Assembly: GCA_963674735.2 (NCBI GenBank)
Contig: CAXXQS010000001.1
Location: 1,280,001 to 1,344,000 of the forward strand
Length of the DNA: 64,000 nt
Source: Myxococcota bacterium
GTDB lineage: Bacteria; Myxococcota_A; SURF-8
Reading direction: 5' to 3'
Part shown: one piece after another, positions 4,672 through 55,889 of the stretch
How positions within the stretch are numbered: the first letter of the stretch is position 1
Layout of the letters: every line of letters begins with the position of its first letter
The notes under the pieces: model-generated
The model's database searches: none
Told to the model about the DNA's origin: nothing
Seen by the model: the letters and a program-made list of their open reading frames with translations, nothing else
Translations under genes and position numbers: made by a program

Positions 4672-7188
4672 ATGAGCGTCGCAACCGCCGAAAAACGTCC
4701 CGTGGAGATCAAACAGCCTCAAGGCCTCTCAGCACGCATCCAGTGGCTGCGAGACTACTATTTCAAGGGGAACGACCGCGCATGGAACAACGAGTTCACC
4801 GCTTGGTCAACCGGCACGGACTGGGATACCCAATGGAACGAGCTTAATTTCTATATCGTTCCGGAAAACTATCTGTTGATGCAGACCTTCGTATCGTCAT
4901 TCAAACAGGCGGCCAAACCGGTCAAACTGCATCCCGATTTCTGGCGTTGGAGTATTGCCGAACGGCGGGCCTGGTTCAACCGTGAGGTCGTGACCAACTA
5001 CCTGCCGCACGAGATTCTCCCCGGTGACCTGCTGGCGGGAGCGCGCTTCAATTTGCAAACCTCGCTGTGTTTGGACAAGAAGGAAGCAAAACGGCATCAG
5101 AAACTGATAAAAGGAAAGCATGGGGCTCGTTACGCGGTGAAATGGTTTCATGATCACGGTTACGGCAATTGCGGCCCTACGGCCGGTCACCTGATTCCCA
5201 ACCACGAGCAGGCGCTCGTTATCGGTTGGAAGGGGATCCACGCCGATCTCGCCAGAAGGCTCGAATCATTGACGCCGGTCGAACGAAAAAGTTCGCGTGG
5301 TCAACAACTTCGCGCCATGATGACGGCCGCAACGATGCCGCGCGATTTGGCCGCCAAATATGCCGAGGTCTGTCGCAAGCAGGCTGCGGATGAAAAAGAT
5401 GAAACACGCAAAACCGAGCTTGAACAAATGGCTCGAAACCTGGCGCGGGTTCCCTGGGAGCCGGCCGAAAATTTCTGGGAAGCCGTTCAAGCGTTGTGGA
5501 TCAATCATATGCTGATTATGTCTGACGAAAACTACCCGGGCCCCGGTGTCAGTTTTGGACGCATCGATCAGTATCTGCTGCCTTATTGGCGTCGGTCGAT
5601 CGAAGAGGGTATGGATCGAGAGTTCGGTAAAGAGATGCTTAAATGTTTCTTTGTGCATGCCAACACCGCTTACGATGCCTTGATTCGTGCTGGAAACCAG
5701 GGTATCACCGCTGGTTTCGGGCAGTTGATCACCTTGGGAGGGCTTGGGGCCGACAATCAGGATATGACCAACGAACTGACCTACGTGTTTCTTGAGGTCA
5801 TCGATGAGATGTCGCCGATTCTCGAACCCAAACCCAATGTCCGCTTGCATCGTCAAACTCCCGAGGAGTTGATGGACAAGGTGACGGATATGGTGGCGTC
5901 TTGCCAAGGAGCCCCGTTTTTGCTGAATTTCGACGAGCGTTCGATGGCCGGTATGATGCGAGAAGCCAAACAGGCCGGACTGGAAAACCTGATCAATGAA
6001 CACAATGTACACGACTATGCACCGGTAGGCTGTCTTGAGAATACCATGGTTGGAAACGATCGATCCGGGACGGTCGATTGCAACCTCAACCTGCTGAAGG
6101 CGGTCGAGCTGGCTTTGACAGGCGGGCGTGATCTACTGAAGGTGGTGGATCCCATCACCGGCAAAGTGGACCCGGTCGAGCAGGATGGCCCGGCCACCGG
6201 CGATGCTACGACGTTCACGGATTTCGAACACTATTTCGAGGCTTATGCCGAGCAAACACGCTATATAATCAAACGTTGCGTTGGGTTATACGATATCAGT
6301 GAAAGCATCCGCGCCACCTTCAATCCCACTCCCTATTTGTCCTGTCTGGTGAAAGGATGCGCCGAAAAGGGCCGTGATATCACGAACGGTGGACCGGAAA
6401 TCAATCTGGTCACCCTCGAAGCCGTTACGTTTGCCACAACTGTGGACTCTTTGCTGGCCATCAAGTATCTGGTTTTCGATACCCAAGCCTGCACGATGGC
6501 GGAATTGATCCAGGCGCTGAAAGACAACTGGGAGGGACACGAGGTCTTGCAGGCGCGGGCCAAGTACAAGGCACCCAAGTATGGCCGCGATGATGACGAA
6601 GCCGATGCCATGGCTCGGCGCGTGATGGACCTGTGGACAGGCGAGTCATGGAAACATCGCACAACCGTGACGAATCGGCAGTTCCGACCGGGCATGCTCA
6701 GTTGGAATTACTGGGTGGGTGACGGATATGTGATGGCCGCCAGCCCGGACGGACGTCCCAAGGGCCAGTTTCTATCCAATGCCATCTGTCCGTCAAACGG
6801 GGCGGATATCAACGGGCCCACCTCGAACTCGAATTCGGTGGGGAAGGTGTTGGGTGGAAAATCGGTGGAAGGTGAGGGCGATTGGAACGGTTATCTGAAT
6901 AGCCTGCCCAATGGCGCCAGCCATACGATTACGTTCAACCCATCGATCATCAAGGATCCGGAGCACCGAACGAAGTTCAAGTCATTCTTGCGAGGTTATG
7001 CGGAAAATGGCGGAACCGCACTGCAAATAAACATGCTGGATGTCGATATGCTCAAGGATGCGCAGCAGAGACCGCAGGACTATCGGCATTTGTTGGTACG
7101 CGTCACCGGTTACAATGCCTACTTCACTTCGATTGGTCGCGAGCTTCAAAATGAGGTTATCGCACGACTCAGCCACGATCAGTTTTAG
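4672..7188 (+). CDS. Glycyl radical enzyme (PFL-like superfamily), not pyruvate formate-lyase; substrate unknown
   Basis: C-terminal glycyl loop LLVRVTGYNAYF (Gly813), single Cys loop PVGCLENT (Cys454-x-Glu456), SFGRIDQYL, APKYGRDD, ASPDGR motifs; 838 aa. Confidence 0.92.
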   Translation: MSVATAEKRPVEIKQPQGLSARIQWLRDYYFKGNDRAWNNEFTAWSTGTDWDTQWNELNFYIVPENYLLMQTFVSSFKQAAKPVKLHPDFWRWSIAERRAWFNREVVTNYLPHEILPGDLLAGARFNLQTSLCLDKKEAKRHQKLIKGKHGARYAVKWFHDHGYGNCGPTAGHLIPNHEQALVIGWKGIHADLARRLESLTPVERKSSRGQQLRAMMTAATMPRDLAAKYAEVCRKQAADEKDETRKTELEQMARNLARVPWEPAENFWEAVQALWINHMLIMSDENYPGPGVSFGRIDQYLLPYWRRSIEEGMDREFGKEMLKCFFVHANTAYDALIRAGNQGITAGFGQLITLGGLGADNQDMTNELTYVFLEVIDEMSPILEPKPNVRLHRQTPEELMDKVTDMVASCQGAPFLLNFDERSMAGMMREAKQAGLENLINEHNVHDYAPVGCLENTMVGNDRSGTVDCNLNLLKAVELALTGGRDLLKVVDPITGKVDPVEQDGPATGDATTFTDFEHYFEAYAEQTRYIIKRCVGLYDISESIRATFNPTPYLSCLVKGCAEKGRDITNGGPEINLVTLEAVTFATTVDSLLAIKYLVFDTQACTMAELIQALKDNWEGHEVLQARAKYKAPKYGRDDDEADAMARRVMDLWTGESWKHRTTVTNRQFRPGMLSWNYWVGDGYVMAASPDGRPKGQFLSNAICPSNGADINGPTSNSNSVGKVLGGKSVEGEGDWNGYLNSLPNGASHTITFNPSIIKDPEHRTKFKSFLRGYAENGGTALQINMLDVDMLKDAQQRPQDYRHLLVRVTGYNAYFTSIGRELQNEVIARLSHDQF

Positions 7189-42506: not shown

Positions 42507-44204
42507 TCAGTGTCGTAAAATCTCACCCAAGCGCTTGGTAAGCTTGAGGTTTTCCGAATAGTCAACCGGCACCACCACAACCGACGGCCGCGAGGCGTCG
42601 GCCAGCGCGGCTTGTAGAATCGGGACAAAATCCTGAGCTGCTTCAACGCGTGCGGCGCGGCAACCGAAGCTTTCGGCCAGCTTCACCAAGTCGGGATTGA
42701 GGAAGGCGGTGTGCGAATGTGCGCCGAACTGGGCTTCCTGCTTCCAAGTGATAAGTCCGTACTCGTTGTCTTCCCAGACGAGAAAAACCGCCGGGATTTT
42801 GTATTGCACCGCCGTTGCCAACTCCTGCACGTTCATCAGGAACCCGCCGTCTCCGCAAAGCCCGACGATGTGCTTTTCGGGATGCAAACGTTTGGCCGCG
42901 ATCGCGCCGGGCAGGGCGATACCCATGGAACAGAAGCCGTTCGAGATAATGCAGGTGTTCGGCTGGTAGGCCGGATAATTACGCGCCACCCACATTTTGT
43001 GCGCGCCCACATCGCTGATGAGGATATCGTCGTCGCGCATCACCTCACGCAGGTCGCGTAGAATGCGTTGCGGCTTCATGGGAAAGTGGTCGCTGGAGGC
43101 TTCGTATTCCAGCTCGGTCAGAATGTGTCGCCGCTCGGTGGCGAACTCCTCCACATCGCGTTTGTGGGCGTCGGTGAGGCCCTCGTTGATCGCCCACAGC
43201 GACCCGGCGATGTCTCCCACCACTTCGATTTCGGGCCGGTAGTGGTCGTCCACCTCGGCCGGGCTGAAATCGATATGCAGCACGTTCTTGTCGTTTTGCG
43301 GATTCCATACGGAGGGATGCCATTCCACCATGTCGTAGCCGATGCAAATCACCAGGTCGGCTTTGAAAAACGCTTCCGTGACGTGGTCGCGCGACTGCAA
43401 GCCGGCCGCCAGCAGACTGCGTTCGTGGCGAGCGCTGACGGCTCCCTTGCCCATGAAGGTATGGGCGACGTAAAGGCCGGTGGCGTCCACAAAACGATTA
43501 AGCTGCTTCATGGCACGGGTCCGAACACAGCCGTTACCCGCCAGAATGATGGGACGGCGACTGTTTTGAATTAGCTCCAAGGCCTGGGATACCGCTTTTT
43601 CGTCGGGTCCGGGTCGACGCACCTTGATTCCACGCTTGAAGGGCTTGTTCGAGGTTTCTTTCTTCGCAATGTTTTCAGGCAGTTCAACAAGACACGCGCC
43701 CGGTTTTTCCGCCATCGAGAGTTTGAAGGCTTTTCGAATCACCTCCGGAATGTTGCAGGCTTCGTGCACGGAATGCGCCCATTTCGTGATCGGCTGGAAC
43801 ATGCCGACGATGTCCATATTCTGATGCGATTCCTTGTGCAGACGTAGGGTGCTTCCCTGACCGGCGATGGCGACCACCGGGCTGTGGTCCATATTTGCGT
43901 TGGCGACGCCGGTAACCAGGTTGGTCGCGCCGGGGCCGAGCGTGGCCAGGCAAACGCCCGGTTTGCCGGTCAGACGACCGTGCAGATCGGCCATGAAAGC
44001 CGCGCCCTGCTCGTGTCGGCAGATGATGAACTCGATGGGAGAGTCTAAAAGCGAGAGCATCAGGTCGGCATTTTCTTCACCCGGCACACCGAAAATGGTG
44101 TCAACACCTTCTTCTTCCAGGCAGCGGAGAAACAGATCCGACGCTTTTTGAAAGTGAACATCTCGCACGGGATCGCCACTGGGCTTTTCGCATTTGGACG
44201 GCAC
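42507..44204 (-). CDS. ThDP enzyme of the acetolactate-synthase family, probable 2-oxoglutarate decarboxylase (OgdA-like)
   Basis: FGVPGEEN, RHEQGAAFMA, LGPGATNL, DVGAHKMW, GDGGFLMN; directly upstream of SSADH; no ilvN/ilvH nearby. GTG 44204 follows an AAGGA RBS (ATG 44243 is an alternative start). Confidence 0.8.
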   Translation of the reverse strand: MPSKCEKPSGDPVRDVHFQKASDLFLRCLEEEGVDTIFGVPGEENADLMLSLLDSPIEFIICRHEQGAAFMADLHGRLTGKPGVCLATLGPGATNLVTGVANANMDHSPVVAIAGQGSTLRLHKESHQNMDIVGMFQPITKWAHSVHEACNIPEVIRKAFKLSMAEKPGACLVELPENIAKKETSNKPFKRGIKVRRPGPDEKAVSQALELIQNSRRPIILAGNGCVRTRAMKQLNRFVDATGLYVAHTFMGKGAVSARHERSLLAAGLQSRDHVTEAFFKADLVICIGYDMVEWHPSVWNPQNDKNVLHIDFSPAEVDDHYRPEIEVVGDIAGSLWAINEGLTDAHKRDVEEFATERRHILTELEYEASSDHFPMKPQRILRDLREVMRDDDILISDVGAHKMWVARNYPAYQPNTCIISNGFCSMGIALPGAIAAKRLHPEKHIVGLCGDGGFLMNVQELATAVQYKIPAVFLVWEDNEYGLITWKQEAQFGAHSHTAFLNPDLVKLAESFGCRAARVEAAQDFVPILQAALADASRPSVVVVPVDYSENLKLTKRLGEILRH

Positions 44205-44376
44205 GAGTCCTTCCTTTCCGCAATGTGAAGACCCGATCATCATGCCGGGCGGTTTGGTCTATTGAAAGCAGGTGTAACCAATTAACTTTATAGCACACCC
44301 CTCCAGTCGAAGCCAGTCAAGATCGTCGGGTCTGGCATGCGGGTTAACGTTACGGCTTCCATTGCGTCGGGAGCAT

Positions 44377-44431: not shown

Positions 44432-45874
44432 CTACGGATTGGGCTGTGTTTCGATGGAAACCGTATACTTCAGCCAGCCGTCCTCTTCTTTGCTGAGTGC
44501 GATGGCGTCTTCACAGGTGGCGTCTTCGTCCATACGCTGCATGTGGAAGAAACTCAGGTTTTCGTCGGGGAAGGCCGGGAAACTGAGCTCGGGGTAAACC
44601 AGCGAGTCCTGGTCCGCGCCGATTTCATACTGCTCGTTGTCGTGGAACACAATACCCTTGATATGATTTTCGTCGAGGATGGTCGCGGTGTGCAGGCGCG
44701 ATTCCCAACGCTGGGTACTGAAGATCTTGCCGTTTAAAAGGCCCGTGAGCTGGGTGGTCATGCCGGGGTATCCGTCCATATCCTGATCGAAAACACGCGG
44801 GTCGACGTTGTCGGGGTTGTCCAGGTCGAGTTTGGGGATATCTTCATTGAGAAGGTCTTCCAGGACCGCGCCGCGTACTTCGGTGAAGGTGCTGGTGGTG
44901 TCCCAGGTCGCGCCCGCTTCGAGTTTGGGCGGGTTTTCCAACTCGTGGCGCAGCATGGAGACGTTGTCCCAGTAGGCCTTCGGGATGATCATGCCGCCGG
45001 TGACGGTCTGGGTCGGATCTTCGACGCTGTACGTGACGGAACTACCATCATCCTCTTCCAACAGATTCCACATGAACATCTTGCAGGCTTTGGATTCGAT
45101 GATCAGTTTGTCGCCGTCGCGGCTGACACGCGTGAGCATGGTGTGCTGAGAAACGGTACTGATTTCGTTGATGATGGGAATCCCGGTGGTGAGCTGGGCG
45201 GTGTTGAACATCATGCCCCACACGCCGACATAGGCTTCGGCGTTGGAACCGGCATCGCCCGTGCCCAGATCCACTTCGCCGTTGTCCTGACAAACGGCGT
45301 CTTCGTTGCAACTCCACTGGTAACCGTAATCGATGCAGGGACGGTCGGCGCAGTTGTCCAGCCAATGATGGGTGGCGCAATCGAGATCCGGCACGCAGCT
45401 ACCTTTGGTTTCCGTTTGTGTGTCACCGTCGGGATCGTCGCCGTCAGAATCGTCGCCATCGGGAGCATCGCCATCGGGAGAATCCGAGACAATGCAGGCG
45501 AAATTATCGCAAATCAGTCCGTTGCCGAATTTCGCGCAATCTTCGTTGGTTTGACATTCCGACAAGCAATAGCCGCTCTCCTGGCAGATGCCGAAGGTGC
45601 AGTTGGCGTTGCTTTCGCACACTTCCAGACACTGGTAGGTTACGCATTCCATATTGGTGCCGTATAGCGCGCAATCTTCATTTTTCCGGCAATCGCTGGC
45701 GCAAAAACCGCCGGGATTGCAGAAACCGAAGCTGCACTGGTCGTCGGCGGTACACGTTTGATAGCCGAGGGAGTCGAAATCGGTCTCGTGTCCTTGTTCG
45801 ATGGCACAACCCGCAAGCAGGACCAAACCGAGCATGGCGAGTACCCAAACACTCATAATCGATGATCTATACAT
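44432..45874 (-). CDS. Cys-rich lipoprotein with DGD linker and unknown C-terminal domain
   Basis: AGGAGG RBS, lipobox LAGC, repeated CxxxxxCxFGxC modules, SPDGDAPDGDDSDGDDPDGD, DQDMDGYPGMT motif. Confidence 0.8.
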   Translation of the reverse strand: MYRSSIMSVWVLAMLGLVLLAGCAIEQGHETDFDSLGYQTCTADDQCSFGFCNPGGFCASDCRKNEDCALYGTNMECVTYQCLEVCESNANCTFGICQESGYCLSECQTNEDCAKFGNGLICDNFACIVSDSPDGDAPDGDDSDGDDPDGDTQTETKGSCVPDLDCATHHWLDNCADRPCIDYGYQWSCNEDAVCQDNGEVDLGTGDAGSNAEAYVGVWGMMFNTAQLTTGIPIINEISTVSQHTMLTRVSRDGDKLIIESKACKMFMWNLLEEDDGSSVTYSVEDPTQTVTGGMIIPKAYWDNVSMLRHELENPPKLEAGATWDTTSTFTEVRGAVLEDLLNEDIPKLDLDNPDNVDPRVFDQDMDGYPGMTTQLTGLLNGKIFSTQRWESRLHTATILDENHIKGIVFHDNEQYEIGADQDSLVYPELSFPAFPDENLSFFHMQRMDEDATCEDAIALSKEEDGWLKYTVSIETQPNP

Positions 45875-45893
45875 GGTATCCTCCTGCAACAGG

Positions 45894-47444
45894 CTAGAAT
45901 TCGTAGTGGAACGAAACGCTGGTCACGAACATCCATCCATACTGGCTGTATGACGGAAACCCCGGATTGTTGGTCTGTAAACCATATCCGGCTGAAATCG
46001 GGGCTTCTTCAACAATGGTTACCAGATGATCCGGGAATTCGTCGCGAATCTGGTTTGGATCCTTGTTGACCGTCCGTTTCAGCATTTGCCAGAATTGGAG
46101 CCCGATCTGAGCGTAGAACTGCCAGTCTTCGCCGAAACCGAAGTCGAAACGGTTGCCCATGCTGAGACCCCAGGTATCGCTATCGGCGTAGTTGGTACGG
46201 CCCTTTTGAGTGGGGACCGGCGAGGGGTTCCAGGCGAACCCGAGTTTTCCTTCAGACCAGCTTACGTAACGGTAACTGGTGTTCATATTGACACTGAGGG
46301 TGTCGAACCACTTGTAGTCGTTGCCATTGATGGCGGGAGACGAAGAATTGGCGCGTTGGAAAACCGCGGCTTCTTCCGGATGTTCATAATGAATGTCGCG
46401 GTACTTCGACCAGCGATTCCAGGTCAGACCGGCTTGGATTTTCCAGTCGGGCAGCGGCATAAAGCCAAGCCCCGAGGACACTTCCATCGGCTCGTAATCG
46501 AGGGCCATATCCCACTCGGCTTTGACACGCATGGGGACGGTCTGAGGGCCGACATCGGAGACGCTCTCGTGGAAGTTCCACAGATTGACGCCGCCGCTGG
46601 CATCGGTTTTGATGTAGGATTCGTTGCGCCAGGTCATGCCGATCGTAAACCAATCGAGGGGCTGCGCATGAATACCCACGATGGGACGAAACTTCGGTAC
46701 GGCGGTGGTTTTTCCTGCCACCAGCATGTAGTCCTGCACGGTGGCTTCCGGGATGTAGACGTTGAGATCGGCCACCAACGCGGCGCTGACCTGCAGGCTG
46801 ACACCCAGGCTGATGTACTTGATCGGCGAATACGAAACACCAAACATACCGGTAATAATGGGCGACCATTCACCGAAACGCGCGAAGTGCATCTGGTTGG
46901 AGAAATACTGTTCGCGTTCGTCCGAGTAATAAAGCGCGGCATCCAGGGCGTTGATCACCGGGATCGTGGCCATACCGCCCACTCGGAATCCCTCAAGCCC
47001 GAAATCATACGTGAAACCGGCACCCAGGTAGGTTTCCACGTTCGTGACCCGGGTGTTGCTGCGCTTGTTGGTCAACTCGATGGTCGGCAGGGCGCGGTCG
47101 GGATTATCGGAGGCTGAAAGGCCGCCGACGCTGACTTCGTATATCTGCATCGGGACATCCGCATTGGCCGGTCTTGTTCCGACATTGACTTTGAAGCTCG
47201 GTTTGTAAAGGGTGAAATCCACACCGGAGTGTGGGGCAAACCGCGACATCAACGCAGGGTTCGAGTATAAAACGCCGTAGCTTTCTCCCCAGGAGTAGTC
47301 GGCATTGGCTCCCGCAACGGCCGAACTGTCGTAGCCGATCCACTTGAAAGCGGATGCGTGAGCCGTGATGGGCATGAGCAGGAGGGCCAGAATGGCCAGC
47401 CGCCCGCCCCAACGACGGATTTCGGGTAAGTGATGATGCGTCAT
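45894..47444 (-). CDS. FadL/OmpP1-like outer-membrane transporter for hydrophobic compounds
   Basis: Signal peptide (AHA), N-terminal hatch with NPA motif (YSNPALMSRF), beta-strands, WSKY, terminal Phe. Confidence 0.72.
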   Translation of the reverse strand: MTHHHLPEIRRWGGRLAILALLLMPITAHASAFKWIGYDSSAVAGANADYSWGESYGVLYSNPALMSRFAPHSGVDFTLYKPSFKVNVGTRPANADVPMQIYEVSVGGLSASDNPDRALPTIELTNKRSNTRVTNVETYLGAGFTYDFGLEGFRVGGMATIPVINALDAALYYSDEREQYFSNQMHFARFGEWSPIITGMFGVSYSPIKYISLGVSLQVSAALVADLNVYIPEATVQDYMLVAGKTTAVPKFRPIVGIHAQPLDWFTIGMTWRNESYIKTDASGGVNLWNFHESVSDVGPQTVPMRVKAEWDMALDYEPMEVSSGLGFMPLPDWKIQAGLTWNRWSKYRDIHYEHPEEAAVFQRANSSSPAINGNDYKWFDTLSVNMNTSYRYVSWSEGKLGFAWNPSPVPTQKGRTNYADSDTWGLSMGNRFDFGFGEDWQFYAQIGLQFWQMLKRTVNKDPNQIRDEFPDHLVTIVEEAPISAGYGLQTNNPGFPSYSQYGWMFVTSVSFHYEF

Positions 47445-47814
47445 GGATCTCCCTTGTATACGAAATAGACAGGTACCCTAAAACACACATTCGATAACCC
47501 GGCTGCCTCTTTCCGAGATACTCAGAAGCGGCGGTCCAGTTTTTTTCTTCGTTTGGTAACTACGGTAGCCGTGGCTTAACGTGTTGACTCGATAAACCTA
47601 ATCGAAAGACGAATGCTTTTGCAAGAAAAAGGTGAAAATTCTGTAATTATTTTGTAAAAGGACTGAGTGAGCAGTCGCTCAGGGAACGGGCGGAAATGCT
47701 CAAATATCATGGGTAAAAGGCGCTGGACAGACAATTTTAAGCTTTGTCGTGCAAGCAATTTCGGTTATGTTGAAATGTCACTCGTCTTCAGACTCACAAC
47801 GTAAAGGATATGCG

Positions 47815-49248
47815 ATGCCGTCGATCAATCCCATTCCTGATTTCAAGGCTCCCATCGATCGCGATGAAGCTCTTCGAATCGTAAAAAGCTTCGAGCGACA
47901 TATCAACCGCGGGCAGGTGCGTTACCTCAAGGCCGGTCATCTGGATGTGCTGGAAACCGAGCGCATAGGGGTGACCTTCGTCGACCCGATTTCGAAGCGT
48001 CGTATGATCGACTGCTTTTCGTCGGCGGGCAGCTTCAATGTTTCGCGGCACAATCCGCAGATTATGCAGGTCCTGGTGGACGCCTTGGACGAATGGGATA
48101 TGGGAAGCGCCGCGTGTCTGTCCGAAGCCAAACTGGCGTTTGCAAGAAAACTGGTGGATCACGCCCCCGGCGACCTCAACCGCATCCGTTTTGCGGCGGG
48201 GGGCGGAGATGCCGTGGATGGGGCGATCAAGCTGGCCAAAGGCGCAACCAAGCGCACGGAAGTGGTAAGCACGGTCATGGCCTATCATGGTCATACGGGC
48301 TTTGCCCTGTCGGCCAACGGCAAAGAACATTACCGCCACTATTGCGAGCCGCTGATGCCGGGCTTTCGCTTCGTTCCTTTCAACGATCTGGAAGCCATGC
48401 GCCATGCGATTTCCGACCGCACCGCGGCCGTGATCGTCGAACCGGTACAGGGCGAGGCGGGAATCTTTGTCGGAACGACCGACTACCTGCACGGACTGCG
48501 GCAGTTGTGCGACGAAATGGGGGCGCAACTCATTTTTGACGAGATCCAAACCGGTTTCGGGCGTACCGGGCGTCTGTTCGCTTGCGAACATGCGGGCGTG
48601 GTGCCCGATATCATGACCGTAGCCAAGTCGCTGGGCGGTGGACTTTACCCCAACGCGGCGATTTTATATCGCGAGACCGATACCTTGGTCCGTTTTGTGG
48701 ACACCTATCCCGACTTCCACCCGTCTGCGGTGGGCGGGTCTGATCTGGGCTGCAAGGTTTCGCTTGCGGTGCTGGAATACCTGATAGAAAACCGCATGTG
48801 GGAAAACGCCGCGCGTCAGGGCGAGCGTTTGAAAGCGGCGCTGAATAACATTCGGCGGCGTAATCCCAAGATCGTTAAGGACGTGCGCGGTATCGGGCTG
48901 ATGATCGGGATCGATTACCTGCATGAATTCATGGGCCCGATGATGGCGGATGCGCTGGCCCGGCACGGTGTTTTCGCCGCCTATTCGGGCAATGCGCCGC
49001 AGGTCATGCGCTTCATGGCACCCATCACCATCGATGACGCCGAAATGGACCGTCTGATCGACGCCATCGAGGCGGCCGTGGCCGACATGAAAAAGCTGCT
49101 GCCGCTGGCGCTTCCGGCTGCGCGGGTTCCGGTGGTGCTGAAGATGCTCAATAGCGAGAAGGTGCAGACGTCTCTATTCGGCCTGTTGCGCAAGGTGGAA
49201 GACGGGGCCAAGCGAATCGGACTGGGAACGGGAAGGGGGGCGAAATGA
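47815..49248 (+). CDS. Class III PLP aminotransferase, subunit A (catalytic Lys present)
   Basis: [39 protein letters not shown] (Lys codon 48625-48627), VRGIGLMIG. Confidence 0.92.
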
Positions 49249-50489
49249 GCCGACAAGCGATGACCCTGGAACAGATGAAAACCGAAGCGGCGGCGCTGTT
49301 CGGAACGGCGGCGGTCGGCCAGTTGGAAGCGCGCGGGCGCGACTTTCTGGAAGGGCGGCGCGCCGGATGCGAAATGTGGTCGGCGGAGGAAAAACGCTAT
49401 CTCGATGCGGATACCAACGGCGGTATCTTCAATCTGGGCCGCCGACACCCCGAGTTGGCCGAGGCTTTCAAGGGCGCGGTGGCGCAAACGGATCAGGGTA
49501 ATTTTCCGATGATTTCGCGGGAAAAAGCCGCTTTGGCCGAGGCGTTGAGCCGCTTTGTCCCGGGGTCGCTCGATTGCGCCATGTTCAGCGTCGTGCGCGG
49601 CGAAACGGTCGAAGGAGCCTGTAAAATCGCACGCGGTGTGACGGGGCGTAGCGAATTGATCGCCTTCGATGGTTCCTGGCATGGGGAAACCGGTTTCGCC
49701 ATGACCCTGTCGGACCGGAACGACAAGCGCTTGTACGGCGAAATGATCCCCGATGTGTTTCATCTGCCATTCGACGACTTGGATGCCGCCAAGCAGGCTA
49801 TCGGCAAACACACGGCGGCCGTTATTCTCGAACCGCTGCAAGCCGAAAACCATGCGCGGGCGGTCAGTGCGAAATTCGCGAAGGGCTTGCAACGCCTGTG
49901 TCGCAAGCATGGCGCATTGCTGATCGTCGACGAAACCCAAACCGGTCTGGGGCGTTGCGGCGCGGCATTCGCCTACATGAGTCTGGGGATCGAGCCCGAC
50001 ATGCTGATTACCGGTGAAGCTTTAGGGGGAGGATTGTTCCCCATCGCCGCGACCTTGCTGACTCAAAAAGTCAACGCCTACCTGAACGCTCATCCGCTGA
50101 TTCATCTGTCCACCTTCGGCGGCTCCGACCTGGGCTGCCGGGTGGCGTTGAAAACGTTGGAGATCATGGAACGCGAACGGATATGGGAAAAAGCGGCTCG
50201 CCAGGGATCGCGTTTCAAGCTCGGACTGGGCCATATCGCCGCCGATTATCCCGAGCTGTTCGTTTCGGTGGCGGGGGAGGGCCTGCTGCTCTCGCTTAAA
50301 TGCCGTGACGACGACACCGCCGCCGCATTTGTAAAGGCCTTGTCAACACGCGGTCTGTTGACGTCGCAGGGACGGGGAGACCGCTCTTCGGTCTTGTTCC
50401 GTCCTCCGCTCACCCTCGACGATGCAACGGCCGATGAGATGCTGAAAATCGCCGTTCTTGCCGGAGACGATCTGTCCAACGAGAAATGA
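49245..50489 (+). CDS. Class III aminotransferase paralogue, subunit B (PLP Lys replaced by Glu)
   Basis: ILEPLQAE, VDETQTGLGRCG, PDMLITGEALGGG (GAA at 50016-50018), HLSTFGG; ATGA overlap with subunit A. Confidence 0.88.
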   Translation: MSRQAMTLEQMKTEAAALFGTAAVGQLEARGRDFLEGRRAGCEMWSAEEKRYLDADTNGGIFNLGRRHPELAEAFKGAVAQTDQGNFPMISREKAALAEALSRFVPGSLDCAMFSVVRGETVEGACKIARGVTGRSELIAFDGSWHGETGFAMTLSDRNDKRLYGEMIPDVFHLPFDDLDAAKQAIGKHTAAVILEPLQAENHARAVSAKFAKGLQRLCRKHGALLIVDETQTGLGRCGAAFAYMSLGIEPDMLITGEALGGGLFPIAATLLTQKVNAYLNAHPLIHLSTFGGSDLGCRVALKTLEIMERERIWEKAARQGSRFKLGLGHIAADYPELFVSVAGEGLLLSLKCRDDDTAAAFVKALSTRGLLTSQGRGDRSSVLFRPPLTLDDATADEMLKIAVLAGDDLSNEK

Positions 50490-50496
50490 GGCTGTC

Positions 50497-51699
50497 ATGA
50501 AGGCGCTATATTTCGAAAACAAACTTCTACCCGCTCTGGCGGTGAAGGTGGCCTCGCAAGTGGACCGCTTCGCCGCGTTGAAGGGTTTCTCTCCGCTCAA
50601 ATATGCCGAGGTGCCCGAGCCGTCCTTGCCGAATGCGCGCTGGCTGAAAGTGCGCAATCTGGCTTGTGGGCTGTGCGGGACCGACCTGCATTTCATGTTC
50701 ATGGACTTCGATCCGACCTGCTTTCCGGCCGCCATTCCAGGGATTTCCCGCAAGTTTCTCGGTCACGAACTGGTGGGCGAGGTGACGGCCGTCGGGGCCG
50801 AAGTTGAAAATCTGAAAGTAGGTGATCGTGTCGCCATGCGCATCGACTGGCCGAGTTGCAACCAGCTGGAAATCGATCCGCTATGCCCGCAATGCCAACG
50901 CGGCTACTACATGTTGTGCGAAAATCAGGGGACGGTGGACCTGCCGTTGCGGGATGTGGGCGGTGGCTTCTCGCCATACATGGTGATGCATCGCAGCCAG
51001 CCTTACAAAATCCCCGACGAACTCGATAACGACCACGCGCTGCTGCTGGAACCGCTGGCCAGCGCGGTGCACGGCGTTCTGAAAGCCTCGCCCGAACCCG
51101 GCAGCAAGATTCTGGTGATCGGTGCGGGAACCATGGGGTTGATGACGGTCGCCGCCTTGCGCGGGCTCTTTCCCGAGACCGACGTCTATTGTCTGGCGCG
51201 CTATCCCTTGCAGGCGGAAGCGGCGGCGCGCATCGGCGCAACGGTCCTCTCCGGTTCGGGGCCGCTTTACCGCAACCTGGCGGAAGTCACCCAGGCCCGG
51301 CACGTAAAGGGCTACCTGGGAAACGAGATTCTGCTCGGTGGTTTCGACGTGGTCTACGACACCGTGGGCGGCGACGCCACCTTGAGTCAGGCGCTGCGGG
51401 TCGTCAAGGGCGGCGGACGTGTGGTGCTCATCGGCATCAATTTCAAGCCCGGCAAGATCGACTACACGCCGGTCTGGGCGCAGGAAGTGGAGTTGACCGG
51501 CATCAACTGTCACGGAACGGAAGCGGATGGACGTACCAGCTTCGAGGTGGCGGCGGAATTGCTCAAACGCGGCGTGCTGGAACCGGAGTGGATCATCACC
51601 CACCGTTTCCCCGTCGCCGACTACAAAGACGCCGTCAAAACCTTCCTCACCAAAGGAAAAAACCAGGCCATCAAGATCGTTTTGGAACACGGGAAGTGA
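50497..51699 (+). CDS. Zinc-binding medium-chain alcohol dehydrogenase (MDR)
   Basis: CGLCGTDLH, LGHE, structural-Zn Cys cluster C..C..C...C, GAGTMG Rossmann motif, ITHRFP. Confidence 0.9.
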   Translation: MKALYFENKLLPALAVKVASQVDRFAALKGFSPLKYAEVPEPSLPNARWLKVRNLACGLCGTDLHFMFMDFDPTCFPAAIPGISRKFLGHELVGEVTAVGAEVENLKVGDRVAMRIDWPSCNQLEIDPLCPQCQRGYYMLCENQGTVDLPLRDVGGGFSPYMVMHRSQPYKIPDELDNDHALLLEPLASAVHGVLKASPEPGSKILVIGAGTMGLMTVAALRGLFPETDVYCLARYPLQAEAAARIGATVLSGSGPLYRNLAEVTQARHVKGYLGNEILLGGFDVVYDTVGGDATLSQALRVVKGGGRVVLIGINFKPGKIDYTPVWAQEVELTGINCHGTEADGRTSFEVAAELLKRGVLEPEWIITHRFPVADYKDAVKTFLTKGKNQAIKIVLEHGK

Positions 51700-51707
51700 G
51701 GAAGGGG

Positions 51708-52136
51708 CTACCGCCGCTTCCCCATGTAATTCATATACAGCGTTTCGCCGGGGAACAGCAGAAGCAGCATCACGAGCGACGGAAACAGGAAGGCCAGAAA
51801 CAACGGCCAGCTTCCGCTCAGGATAAACAGCACCAGCCCGTAAATCGCCACCGATTCCGATAGCGCCCAGCGCATGATGCAAAACACCTCAAAGGGCAGG
51901 GCGCGGGCGAGGAGGGTCGAAAGCAGGGATTGGCCGACGATGGCCGCCGTTGAAATAGCGCCGAAGGCGAGGGTGAGTGTTTGGATGAAGTCCGGGTCGG
52001 GGTCGGTTTTAACGATCCCGATTTGGGGGAAATAGGCTATGCCTCCATAGATGAATGTCGAAAAGGTGATGGCCGCCCAAATGATCCACAGCTTGCGGCG
52101 GCGCTCGGGTGTCAGTTCCTGTTCGTCCATCGGCAT
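51708..52136 (-). CDS. Small membrane protein with ~4 TM helices (142 aa)
   Basis: Only the 3' part of ORF 51708-53501 looks coding: MPMDEQELTPERRRKLWIIW...RWALSESVAIYGLVL. Confidence 0.7.
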   Translation of the reverse strand: MPMDEQELTPERRRKLWIIWAAITFSTFIYGGIAYFPQIGIVKTDPDPDFIQTLTLAFGAISTAAIVGQSLLSTLLARALPFEVFCIMRWALSESVAIYGLVLFILSGSWPLFLAFLFPSLVMLLLLFPGETLYMNYMGKRR

Positions 52137-52349
52137 GGCAACCCCTTGAAAGTCCAGTGTGTTCAAGCCCGGCAAGCATACGTCACCCGCTCCGCAGAAA
52201 CAAGCGCCGGAGAAGAAAAAATGTTCCGAAATCGGTGATTTGATCGACGAAACCCTTGAACATCCGGTAAAAATCGCGTAGGTTTTGATTAAATATGATC
52301 CTATGGGTCTGAAATCTGAAAATGTGGAAATTTTGACGAAGGATTGTCC

Positions 52350-55300
52350 ATGAATTCGATACGCTGGATGGCTTGGATGCTGATCTTGATTGTCGCCTTC
52401 GGGCTTGGAGCCTGCATGGAAGACGATGTCGACTTCAGCGATGGAGACGACCCGGAAGACGGCGATGATGTCGATGGCGACGCTGCGGACGGCGATTTCG
52501 ACTGGTCGCTGCCCGGCGACGGAGACGGCACGGACGGCGATCTTCCCGACGGCGACAAGCCGGACGGCGATGTCCCGTTGGCGTGTCCCGGTACGACGAT
52601 CGAGCCGGACAATCCCGTTGAAGACAGCACCGTCGATAGTCGCAACAACTGGAGCGATTACAGCTGTCTTTCCGCCGAGGAAAACGGTCCTGAAAAACTT
52701 TACCGTTTCGTCGCTCCCGCCTGCGAAGGCACTCTCAACGCGACTGTCGATCTCTCCGAGATGTCGGCCGATCTCGATCTGTTGCTGCTCGATAGCTGCA
52801 ACCCGGCCGACTGCACGCGTTTTTCCAACACCTACGTGGATGAACGCATCGCCTTCAGCGCGACCCCGGGCGAGGATTATTACATCGTGGTCGATGGCTT
52901 CGACGGCGCGGCCGGCTCGTTCACGCTGGAGCTGACCTTCGATTGTCAACAGGGAACCGACGGCGATTCGGATGGAGACAGCGACGGCGATCAGACCGAC
53001 GGGGATAGTGGGGTGAGCCCCGGTGCGAATTGCGCCGATCCCTTGCCGCTGACCCTGAGCAACGGCGATATCGCTGGAAACACCAGTGGGGGCGGCAACG
53101 ACTTCGAGGGTAGTTGCCAGAGCAATAACGGCAGCGACCGGGTTTATGTGTTTACCGTTGCCGAAACGATCAAAATAACCTTTGAAGCCTCCGGCTTCGA
53201 TACCGTCATGTATCTGCGATCCGATTGCGACGATACCGCTTCGCAAATTGCCTGCGATGATGATGGCGGTGCGTCGCACAATGCGCGTATCAGCGAAGAC
53301 CTCGATCCCGGAACCTATTACCTGATCGTGGACGGTTTCGGCGAGAACGAGGGAGCTTTCACTTTGAATACGAAGTTGGATTGCCCGGCGGGAGAAGTGT
53401 ACGATCCCGGTAGCCAGGACTGCGTGGACGATCCCTGCGAGCCCAATCCCTGCTCGGCGGCCAATCAGTCCGTTTGCGTCTACCAGCCGCCCAGCGGCCA
53501 CACCTGCGATTGCGATAGCGGCTATGTGCCGGACGGCGCGGGTGGCTGCATGGTCGATCCCAATCCCAGCGGCGAAACCTGTAGCTCTCCCTTTGTGCTG
53601 ACGCCTTCAAGCGGCAGTGAGAGCGGCAGCACCGTTGGAGCCGGAAATTACTACGCCGGTAGTTGTGTGGGCGACGGTCCCGAGCACGTGTATTCGGTCA
53701 CGTTGACCGAAACCGTCATGGCCAGCATTTATATGGACGGCTACGATACGGGGCTGTACATTCGGCGCGACTGCGACAACAACAACACCGAGGTGAAGTG
53801 CAACGACGATGGCGGCGACGGCTCCGATGCCTACATCGCCTTGGTCCTGGATCCCGGAGATTACTCCATTTTCGCCGACAGCTATGGAGACGGCGGCAAT
53901 TACACCTTGATCTACTCCTTCAATCCCGATCCCTGTGCGAGCGATCCTTGTCCGGCGGAAGCCGATTGCGTTCCCGATGCCGACTGGAGCGAATATACCT
54001 GCGTCTGTGCGGAGGGCTACGTGGCTTACGAGGACGCCTGTATCGACGATCCTTGCACCCCGAACCTCTGCGCTAGCGAACACCAGCACATTTGCCGCCC
54101 GGTGCTTCCGAGTGGCTACGCCTGCGACTGCGATCCGGGCTGGATTTCCGACGGCGCGGGAGGCTGTATGGTCGACCCCGATCCGAGCGGCGAAACCTGC
54201 GCCGAACCGCTTCCGCTTGATATTCTGGCCAGTGGCAGCACTTCCGACACCACCGCCGGAGCCGGATCGAATTACAACGGCGAATGCGGCGGGTCCGGTC
54301 CCGAACGGGTGTACGGCTTCGTCCTGGACGAGCCGATGTATAGCGTCTTCGAAATGAGCGGTTTCGATACGGTTCTGCATCTGCGTAGTGAATGTGACAA
54401 TGCCGACAGCCAGTTGGCCTGTGACGACGACGGCGGACCGAGTTCCGGCTCGCATCTGGCGCGCGTTCTCGAGGCCGGACCGTATTATCTTTTTGCCGAC
54501 AGCTACGGTTCCACCGGCGGCACCTACAATCTGACCTACCAGTTCAACCCCGATCCCTGCGCGGACGATCCGTGTCCGGGGTTGCCCGAGTGTGTGGCCG
54601 CGGCCGATTGGTCGAGCTACGAATGCGTCTGTCCTGCGGGCATGGTTCCGTGGGAGGAAAGCTGTGTGGACGATCCCTGCGAGCCGAATCTGTGCACGGA
54701 TCCATACATGAACCGCTGCGTCATGGATGGCGTGGATCAATACCATTGCGAATGCAATCTCGGCTACATTTCAGATGGGGCAGGCGGCTGTATCGTCGAT
54801 CCCGACGCCAACGATTGGGCTTTCTTCGTGTTCCTCAACGCCGACAACAATCTGGAGGACGATGGGTGGAGCGATGTGGCCGAAATGGTGACGGGCGGCG
54901 GATCGAATCCCTATGTTCACATCGTGGTGATGCTCGATACCTATAGCGGTCCGACCAATACGCTCTACATCACCGACCAGGCCACCAACGGCAATTACGA
55001 AACGTTGGTCGAACACGGGGAACTCAACTTGAGCGACTACCAGACCATGGCCGATTTCGGCGTCTGGGCGGTCGAACATTATCCCGCGCGGCATTACGCC
55101 TTTATCGCCTGGGATCACGGGGCGGGCTGGGAAAAACGTGCGCCGCAGGACGATCCGCTCACCAAAGGCTTTTCCAACGACGACCACGGAAGCGGGGCCG
55201 GAGAAATCAGTATTTCCAACGGCGATTATGCGCGCGCCATGGCGCAGATCACGGCGGCCTTGGGCGACAAGCTCGATGTGGTCGGTTTCGATGCCTGTTT

Positions 55301-55889
55301 GATGGGGATGTGGGAAGTCGCGGCGGCCACCGCCCCCTTCGCGCATTACCTGGTGGCCTCGGGCGATACCGAGCCGGCCTGGGGCTGGTCCTACGATTTG
55401 TTCATGCCCGGTCTGGTCGGCAATCCCGATCTCACGCCGCTTGAATTGGCCACCTCGATTGTCGATACGTATCATGAGTATTCGCCAAACAATGGAACAC
55501 TGGCGGTGGTGGATCTCGATACGATCGACGACCTGAACGACGCCATGTCGGATTTCGCGGATGCGCTGATGGACAATCCGAGTGTCTACACCCAGTTGGG
55601 GACGATTCGCAATGCGACCGAAAGTTTCTACGGCTTCTACGACATCATGCATTTCGCGTTGCAGGTGGCGGCTTCCGGCAGTATGCCGCAGGTCGTTAAA
55701 GATGCGGCACAGGCGCTGGTTACGCAGCTGGAAATCAGCATTGCCTACAATCAGAGCCATTTCGCCAACTCCCATGGCTTGACGGCTTACTTCCCCAATT
55801 CTTCGTTCAATACGGCTTACCAGGACGAGGGCGCGGTGTGGAGCCACAACAGTACGTGGGATGAATTCTTGATTGATTACACAGACTGA
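52350..55889 (+). CDS. Multidomain lipoprotein: DGD linkers, four PPC-like domains, EGF-like pairs, C-terminal clostripain (peptidase C11) domain
   Basis: Lipobox LGAC; FDTVMYLRSDC...DDDGG..PGTYYLIVDG PPC-type repeats; CDCDxGY EGF-like repeats; FLNADNNLE, WDHGAGW (His), FDACLM (Cys). Confidence 0.88.
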   Translation: MNSIRWMAWMLILIVAFGLGACMEDDVDFSDGDDPEDGDDVDGDAADGDFDWSLPGDGDGTDGDLPDGDKPDGDVPLACPGTTIEPDNPVEDSTVDSRNNWSDYSCLSAEENGPEKLYRFVAPACEGTLNATVDLSEMSADLDLLLLDSCNPADCTRFSNTYVDERIAFSATPGEDYYIVVDGFDGAAGSFTLELTFDCQQGTDGDSDGDSDGDQTDGDSGVSPGANCADPLPLTLSNGDIAGNTSGGGNDFEGSCQSNNGSDRVYVFTVAETIKITFEASGFDTVMYLRSDCDDTASQIACDDDGGASHNARISEDLDPGTYYLIVDGFGENEGAFTLNTKLDCPAGEVYDPGSQDCVDDPCEPNPCSAANQSVCVYQPPSGHTCDCDSGYVPDGAGGCMVDPNPSGETCSSPFVLTPSSGSESGSTVGAGNYYAGSCVGDGPEHVYSVTLTETVMASIYMDGYDTGLYIRRDCDNNNTEVKCNDDGGDGSDAYIALVLDPGDYSIFADSYGDGGNYTLIYSFNPDPCASDPCPAEADCVPDADWSEYTCVCAEGYVAYEDACIDDPCTPNLCASEHQHICRPVLPSGYACDCDPGWISDGAGGCMVDPDPSGETCAEPLPLDILASGSTSDTTAGAGSNYNGECGGSGPERVYGFVLDEPMYSVFEMSGFDTVLHLRSECDNADSQLACDDDGGPSSGSHLARVLEAGPYYLFADSYGSTGGTYNLTYQFNPDPCADDPCPGLPECVAAADWSSYECVCPAGMVPWEESCVDDPCEPNLCTDPYMNRCVMDGVDQYHCECNLGYISDGAGGCIVDPDANDWAFFVFLNADNNLEDDGWSDVAEMVTGGGSNPYVHIVVMLDTYSGPTNTLYITDQATNGNYETLVEHGELNLSDYQTMADFGVWAVEHYPARHYAFIAWDHGAGWEKRAPQDDPLTKGFSNDDHGSGAGEISISNGDYARAMAQITAALGDKLDVVGFDACLMGMWEVAAATAPFAHYLVASGDTEPAWGWSYDLFMPGLVGNPDLTPLELATSIVDTYHEYSPNNGTLAVVDLDTIDDLNDAMSDFADALMDNPSVYTQLGTIRNATESFYGFYDIMHFALQVAASGSMPQVVKDAAQALVTQLEISIAYNQSHFANSHGLTAYFPNSSFNTAYQDEGAVWSHNSTWDEFLIDYTD

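Follow-up and report, generated by a model that had tools for sequence, protein, structure and literature searches.

Two adjacent class-III aminotransferase paralogues with complementary active-site losses, probably partners in a heteromer with one complete site

Textbooks describe class-III (omega-)transaminases as homodimers, and industry relies on them heavily for making amines. Among the alpha-oxoamine synthases, a different family of fold-type I, the eukaryotic, membrane-bound serine palmitoyltransferase, which carries out a Claisen condensation, is formed by the paralogous pair LCB1/LCB2, in which one subunit lacks the lysine for pyridoxal 5'-phosphate (PLP) and a single site lies at the heterodimer interface; it is likened to the proteins described here by description only. 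The class-III putrescine aminotransferase YgjG (PatA) of E. coli acts on terminal amines and aldehydes. It forms a homodimer, to which its N-terminal helix adds contacts, and both sites are equivalent: according to the structural report, each combines Lys300 in cis with Thr332* of the other subunit in trans (4uox; PMC4244111). In that report, PLP is bound to Lys300 as a Schiff base, its phosphate is held by Gly150, Thr151 and Thr332*, Asp271 contacts the ring nitrogen, Phe180 is stacked on the ring, and conservation is strict for Glu243, Gln274 and Arg426 (PMC4244111). In Serratia sp. ATCC 39006, the heterooligomeric aminotransferase SerTA (Ser4/Ser5) requires the heteromeric state for activity and draws on residues from both chains; according to its authors, heterooligomeric aminotransferases had not been studied earlier (PMC11726168). 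Here we compare with these systems two adjacent genes in a 64,000-nucleotide stretch of a Myxococcota genome (assembly GCA_963674735.2, contig CAXXQS010000001.1, positions 1,280,001 to 1,344,000; the whole stretch is called the window): gene A (47815..49248, + strand), whose 477-aa product is a Lys-bearing and presumably catalytic class-III aminotransferase subunit, and gene B (49245..50489, + strand), whose 414-aa product is a Lys-less paralogue and presumed non-catalytic partner.

Both proteins are class-III aminotransferases by family membership, with scores far above the PF00202 gathering cut-off of 30.5: A reached 288.3 bits (E 1e-85) with residues 52-422 on profile positions 18-403 of 403, followed by a C-terminal extension of about 50 aa, and B reached 247.5 bits (E 2.5e-73) on positions 15-398. 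The original prediction had called the pair a 'split' aminotransferase. That they are two paralogues is correct (mutual identity 35%), but 'split' is misleading, since each is full length and neither is half of a gene. The best solved relative of both is YgjG (E 4e-72 for A, 1e-54 for B), with which they share the class-III fold, and active-site residues were mapped by HMMER alignments of A and B to YgjG (4uox and related entries). The Schiff-base Lys300 of YgjG aligns with Lys271 in A (codon AAG, 48625..48627, + strand, within TVAKSLGGG) and with Glu258 in B (codon GAA, 50016..50018, + strand, in ITGEALGGG). The position of the trans-acting Thr332* is occupied by Ala305 in A (48727..48729, in the loop FHPSAVGG at 48715..48738, + strand) and by Thr290 in B (50112..50114, in the loop IHLSTFGG at 50100..50123, + strand). 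Gly150-Thr151 of the phosphate cup correspond to Gly130-Gly131 in A, which carries the cup motif FAAGGGDAV together with AYHG, and to Arg118-Gly119 in B, where R118-G119-E120 (49596..49604, + strand, in VVRGETV) replaces the Gly150-Thr151-Glu of YgjG. Phe180 is Tyr157 in A and Trp145 in B. Both proteins keep the aspartate to the pyridine nitrogen (YgjG Asp271; Asp242 in A, Asp229 in B) and the glutamine to O3' (YgjG Gln274; Gln245 in A, Gln232 in B).

The motifs quoted in the original prediction were thus all found in their places, as was the ATGA overlap of the A stop and B start codons (49245..49248, + strand), and the YgjG alignment bears out the complementary losses it had proposed: A retains the Schiff-base lysine and lacks the trans-acting Thr of the (S/T)-T-(F/Y)-G-G loop, whereas B has exchanged the lysine for Glu and retains the Thr. 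The two contributions that YgjG unites in each of its chains are here divided between two paralogues. Judged from its residues, B would be a class-III member by fold and not a competent transaminase alone, because its Schiff-base lysine is replaced by Glu258.

This division is conserved. One genome per species was scanned with B as the anchor, giving 123 relatives, from which the 80 best loci were taken forward; the groups given in the titles of their records are Desulfobacterota/'Deltaproteobacteria', Myxococcota, Hydrogenedentota, Nitrospirota, Spirochaetota, SAR324, Bacteriovoracaceae, Thermoleophilia and Thermovirgaceae, the labels of metagenome-assembled genomes (MAGs) in these titles being the submitters' own. 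The B alignment comprised the window and 79 loci (n=80) and the A alignment the window and 75 loci (n=76). In A, Lys271, Asp242, Gln245 and Glu214 were present in 76/76 rows each and the cup Gly130 in 74/74. The Thr column held Thr in only 2/76 rows (Y in 21, H in 18, L in 7, S and M in 5 each, and others), with variation at positions 303, 305 and 306, while the flanking F, H and GG were unchanged in all 76 rows and a Ser or Thr stood just ahead of the Thr column in 71. The 120 closest A-type database proteins behaved alike (Lys in 120, Thr in 10, His in 120, the two Gly in 119 and 118, and the preceding Ser/Thr in 117). The loop itself therefore appears to survive in A, with relaxation confined to the canonical Thr-aromatic pair, because the preceding Ser/Thr and the flanking F-H...G-G are kept.

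The B rows presented the complementary pattern. Glu258 was Glu in 80/80 rows, and the trans loop was kept (Thr290 80/80, His 80/80, Phe 79/80). Arg118, Gly119 and Glu120 of the altered cup, Asp229, Gln232 and Glu201 were likewise found in 80/80 rows each and Arg386 was invariant, with N202 in 76/80 and C204 in 75/80; the ring-stacking position 145 varied (W, C, R, L). The homologues retrieved from the database with B were 46-57% identical to it; in their alignment the loop Thr was present in 120/120 B-type rows and the 12 commonest patterns at the lysine site (91/121 rows) all read G-E. Thus, the co-occurrence on which the original prediction hinged was found in the 75 paired loci: Lys-to-Glu exchange with kept Thr in B alongside kept Lys with lost Thr in A.

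The two genes were also found to be inseparable wherever the contigs allowed a look. An A orthologue (51-70% identical; A orthologues overall were 51-74% identical to A) lay directly upstream of B in 75/80 B-anchored loci, and the remaining five (L007, L015, L016, L042 and L056) start inside or just before B, at contig ends. In the reverse direction, a search anchored on A covered 400 further genomes from the window's phylum, and 13 of them had an orthologue; B was directly downstream in 11/13, and the other two were cut by contig ends. Across these 80 loci and 13 genomes, A without B or B without A was never found where the contig permitted a look; the pair are always-linked paralogues, one of them lacking the PLP lysine. 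Their junctions were tight, with a 4-nt overlap in 25/67 and a spacing within -10..+4 nt in 51/67, as scored with whichever start codon was closest to the A stop, a choice that biases the result towards small gaps and yielded no start in 7 loci. In a phylogenetic tree A and B each formed one clade, with support of 100 each; the branch that would make A and B sister groups, separating A+B from the outgroup, had a support of 35, with only 6 outgroup rows whose reading frames were picked by BLAST. Furthermore, pairwise distances within A and within B were correlated (r=0.83 over 52 paired loci, 1326 non-independent pairs), with B diverging faster than A (mean distance 0.50 vs 0.43).

Five natural fusions were found, in which the order was always A-linker-B (L060, P0122, P0123, P0124 and P0125). 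L060, titled as a Myxococcales MAG, has A and B in a single open reading frame (ORF) of 937 aa. Its linker (5740-6000), with an 18-nt tandem repeat encoding G-T-E-P-G-S about five times, takes the place of A's stop codon and of the N-terminal ~48 residues of B; this fusion is a single record and could be an assembly artefact. The other four are protein clusters of 851-906 aa, and P0124 has 11 member sequences from 3 contigs. The linkers of P0123 and P0124 are alike and that of P0125 is its own. In each fusion the first half carries the Lys and lacks the Thr, and the second half carries G-E-A-L-G and H-L-S-T-F-G-G.

The screen for longer proteins that yielded the four fusion clusters gave class-III aminotransferase domains joined to other partners as well: to an APH-type phosphotransferase domain in P0127 and P0131-P0145, with an additional Peptidase_M23 domain in the Gemmatimonadetes-labelled records of this kind (965-1046 aa), and to the cobalamin-binding, methionine-synthase-type modules PF02965 and PF02310 in the 886-aa P0146.

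We then modelled the complex of A and B, with a 52-row alignment for each, PLP included, three runs and three unrelated proteins as controls. The interaction prediction score from aligned errors (ipSAE) of the A/B model was 0.96 in three runs and 0.00 for the best of the 3 controls, the ipSAE mark having been calibrated as one that 58/80 solved complexes and 2/110 mismatched pairs reach. The runs shared at least 93% of contacts, and the partner's predicted local distance difference test (pLDDT) value was at least 93 (93-94 for B). The modelled interface is the canonical one of fold-type I, including residues 270-271, 128-132 and 295-307 on the A side and 258, 116-120, 280-292 and the invariant segment 75-96 on the B side. 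Invariant residues were enriched in it: 28 of the 58 in B lay among its 121 interface residues (odds ratio 2.6, p 0.001), and 26 of the 72 in A among its 116 (odds ratio 2.0).

Taken together, these data point to an A/B heteromer with one complete site, to which A would bring the Lys and B the Thr loop, and we consider this reading likely. It is the arrangement that the original prediction had put forward, now supported by residue co-occurrence, adjacency in both search directions, five fusions and an A/B model that passes its controls. The basic unit would be an A/B pseudo-dimer of class-III (fold-type I) aminotransferase chains, shaped like the usual homodimer and holding one PLP per pair. 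A would provide in cis the Schiff-base Lys271, Asp242, Gln245, Glu214, Tyr157 and the Gly-rich phosphate cup; B would provide in trans the invariant H-x-x-T-F-G-G loop, whose Thr290 would hydrogen-bond the PLP phosphate and line the substrate cleft. The mirror site, composed of the Glu258/Arg118 pocket of B and the variable loop of A, would be silent as a transaminase because an internal aldimine could not form there. A fixed heteromer with one site predicts that the cis elements are frozen and the trans loop relaxed in A, and that the trans loop is frozen and the lysine lost in B.

Several points weigh against this reading. Loss of the trans Thr need not abolish activity, and an A homodimer could still bind PLP because a Ser or Thr is kept at the preceding loop position. 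Similarly, a B homodimer, or the B pocket within a heterodimer, could hold a cofactor-like ligand non-covalently, because Asp229, Gln232, Glu201, Arg386 and its own Thr are retained. Fusion and operon linkage are also seen between sequential enzymes that have no joint active site, and the counts of conserved residues overstate independence, the orthologous rows being related to one another. The proposal of a heteromer is built from sequence and model evidence, and the complex score may reflect memory of solved class-III homodimers: because such homodimers are well represented among solved structures, a passing model indicates likeness rather than a preference for AB and does not separate AB from AA or BB.

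A feature that the heteromer reading does not predict is the invariance of the new pocket residues of B (Arg118, Glu120, Asn202 and Glu258, with Asp229 and Gln232 kept). The original prediction had left the second site dead or repurposed; the absence of a Schiff-base lysine there holds, but simple decay does not describe it, and from the conservation of its residues the former cofactor pocket of B seems not simply to have decayed. It may be a structural plug or a repurposed ligand site, the latter being something we would entertain only tentatively. A heteromer in which this pocket serves, for example, as an allosteric or second ligand site and not as an inert plug departs from the favoured reading solely in the role of the second site, and is a possible but doubtful alternative. 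It gains from the fixation of the replaced residues (R118, G119, E120, E201 and E258 in 80/80 rows, N202 in 76/80, C204 in 75/80) and from the presence in all 80 rows of Asp229 and Gln232, at the ring-nitrogen and O3' ligand positions of YgjG. However, the stacking position 145 varies, the A loop that would face the B pocket in trans is variable at 303, 305 and 306, and the invariant charges could equally form a structural salt-bridge plug replacing the Lys and the phosphate, an R118-E258 contact being a guess. The fuller form of this idea, a widespread, undescribed two-subunit class-III transaminase whose Lys-less subunit both completes the partner's site and has turned its own PLP pocket into a ligand-binding or regulatory site (Arg118, Glu120, Asn202 and Glu258 with Asp229 and Gln232), we rate as rather unlikely; if true, a duplicated active site would have given rise to one catalytic and one sensing site.

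The main rival to a heteromer of any kind is that each protein forms a homodimeric enzyme of its own within one pathway, A tolerating the loss of its Thr and B, Lys-less, working with non-covalent pyridoxamine 5'-phosphate (PMP) or PLP or with no cofactor, in a different reaction on the same metabolite. Lys-less PMP-dependent enzymes do exist in another fold-type I family, namely ColD and the E1 dehydrases, a B homodimer would keep most non-covalent cofactor ligands (Asp229, Gln232, Glu201, Arg386 and Thr290), and the linkage and fusions would fit sequential enzymes too. Yet the complementary pattern would then be a coincidence repeated in all lineages, with Thr in 80/80 chains that lack the Lys and in 2/76 that have it. 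Moreover, B has an Arg at the phosphate-cup position of Gly150 and no conserved ring-stacking residue, it evolves faster than A, and neither gene was found alone where the contig reached far enough to show the other. We judge separate homodimers to be distinctly unlikely. That B is a regulatory 'anti-enzyme' titrating A into less active mixed dimers is very improbable: in its favour are the missing catalytic Lys of B and a predicted interface of the canonical dimer type, but a mixed dimer should have the better site, since B brings the Thr absent from A, and the fusions and the close coupling of translation imply that the subunits are made in a fixed 1:1 ratio and not in a regulated one.

The authenticity of B was assessed separately. 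Logan contigs from 3 runs (2 samples, 1 study; the first two runs, X1 and X2, may be the assembly's own source) showed 0 differences from the window over 47700..51700, and a contig from the second sample spans 49898..50102 and thus codon 50016. The original prediction had named a private point mutation or error at 50016 as what would overturn it; none was seen. B as a sequencing error, private mutation or decaying pseudogene is rejected with near certainty, given the Glu in 80/80 rows from many phylum-level groups, intact ORFs and identical contigs.

In the window, A and B are followed by a third co-directional gene, which encodes a Zn-dependent medium-chain alcohol dehydrogenase (50497..51699, + strand; PF08240 and PF00107). 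The longest ORF for it opens with TTG 50458, but translation probably starts at ATG 50497, 8 nt past the B stop, and the alignment of its orthologues begins at residue 14. The sequence AAGGA lies 8 nt ahead of the gene A ATG. Promoter and terminator scans gave no more hits than shuffled sequence (2 vs a mean of 2.1 and 5 vs a mean of 5.7, respectively), and an Rfam scan of 47300..52400 for a riboswitch or other RNA had no match at E up to 0.1. Database names for homologues of A and B are 'aspartate aminotransferase family protein' or 'putrescine aminotransferase', and none of the 25 best NCBIfam models shown for either protein reaches its cut-off; the putrescine aminotransferase models score 313.6 for A and 218.8 for B against 612 (NF008570) and 255.9 and 199.2 against 658.65 (TIGR03372). 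For the dehydrogenase, too, no NCBIfam model reaches its cut-off, the best being Tdh (137.9 against 380).

Two gene contexts were found among the 80 loci. The order A-B-Zn-dehydrogenase, the window's type included, was present in 32/80, and an alanine dehydrogenase gene upstream of A in 15/80, in Desulfobacterota-type loci and often with an amidohydrolase gene between. These contexts were mutually exclusive (0/80 loci join them). Amidohydrolases of PF04909 were found in 7 loci and of PF07969 in 7 (six upstream of A, one downstream of B), a TetR regulator was nearby in 22 loci, and neighbour analysis otherwise gave generic partners only. Terminal amines and aldehydes are the substrates of the closest curated families, putrescine aminotransferase and PigE, and the substrate class of the A/B enzyme is probably a terminal amine or aldehyde. 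The enzyme would probably turn a primary amine at a chain end into an aldehyde, or an aldehyde into such an amine, and in the window's lineage the aldehyde may be passed to the presumably co-transcribed Zn-alcohol dehydrogenase. Taurine:pyruvate aminotransferase (Tpa) is a class-III amine:pyruvate transaminase whose linked alanine dehydrogenase (Ald) recycles pyruvate. The 15 loci with alanine dehydrogenase resemble this case, and because of that linkage the second context suggests, by analogy, a pyruvate/alanine co-substrate pair and an inducible amine catabolic unit; Tpa differs in being a homo-oligomer of one gene product, and the window locus has the Zn-alcohol dehydrogenase instead. In Desulfosudis oleivorans-labelled loci (L011:7418-11281), the genes that come after alanine dehydrogenase, A and B encode a member of the histidine-phosphatase family, an acyl-CoA dehydrogenase, a TetR regulator and an APH-type kinase, a neighbourhood that may hint at the subfamily's substrate.

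Further genes of the window were noted around the unit. Divergently upstream of A lie a FadL/TodX-type outer-membrane transporter gene (45894..47444, - strand; PF03349, E 5e-11) and an ORF of 485 aa that looks like a lipoprotein, is rich in Cys and Asp and lacks any Pfam match (44432..45889, - strand), a pair that is not conserved beside A/B in other loci. Beyond them is a thiamine-diphosphate enzyme (42507..44243, - strand) that scores 747 bits against the NCBIfam equivalog NF006187 'acetolactate synthase large subunit', above the cut-off of 509. Downstream of the dehydrogenase, 52344..55889 (+ strand) encodes a secreted-looking protein of 1181 aa whose C-terminal domain is a clostripain (Peptidase_C11), preceded by an Asp/Gly-rich N-terminal stretch and by repeated modules that match EGF-like and PPC domains weakly.

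How does the pair stand among described enzymes? Most likely it is a heteromeric PLP enzyme with a pseudo-subunit, a kind already known from LCB1/LCB2 and SerTA, and the class-III case is new as far as found. The original prediction knew of no class-III example, and our full-text literature search, with most subscription journals and supplements outside its reach, likewise found no report of a heteromeric class-III aminotransferase; the only other heteromeric aminotransferase it found was SerTA (2024), of another family. SerTA shares with A/B the tandem arrangement of fold-type I aminotransferase genes, one of them without the catalytic Lys (PMC11726168). It differs in being of the sugar-aminotransferase type, whereas A and B belong to class III (PF00202), and in that Ser4 is truncated, lacking N- and C-terminal regions, whereas B is full length at 414 aa; SerTA is also part of a single secondary-metabolite cluster (PMC11726168), in contrast to the A/B pair, which occurs in many phyla.

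If the heteromer reading is true, A/B would represent a second, independent origin of a heteromeric aminotransferase, in which gene duplication has made the interface sites permanently unequal. The finding also carries a warning for annotation, as B alone is not expected to act as a transaminase and A alone may have little or no activity. Altogether, with its spread over many bacterial phyla, including cultured Desulfoluna strains that are open to study, the A/B pair would be a natural experiment on half-of-sites behaviour and on the origin of pseudoenzyme subunits.

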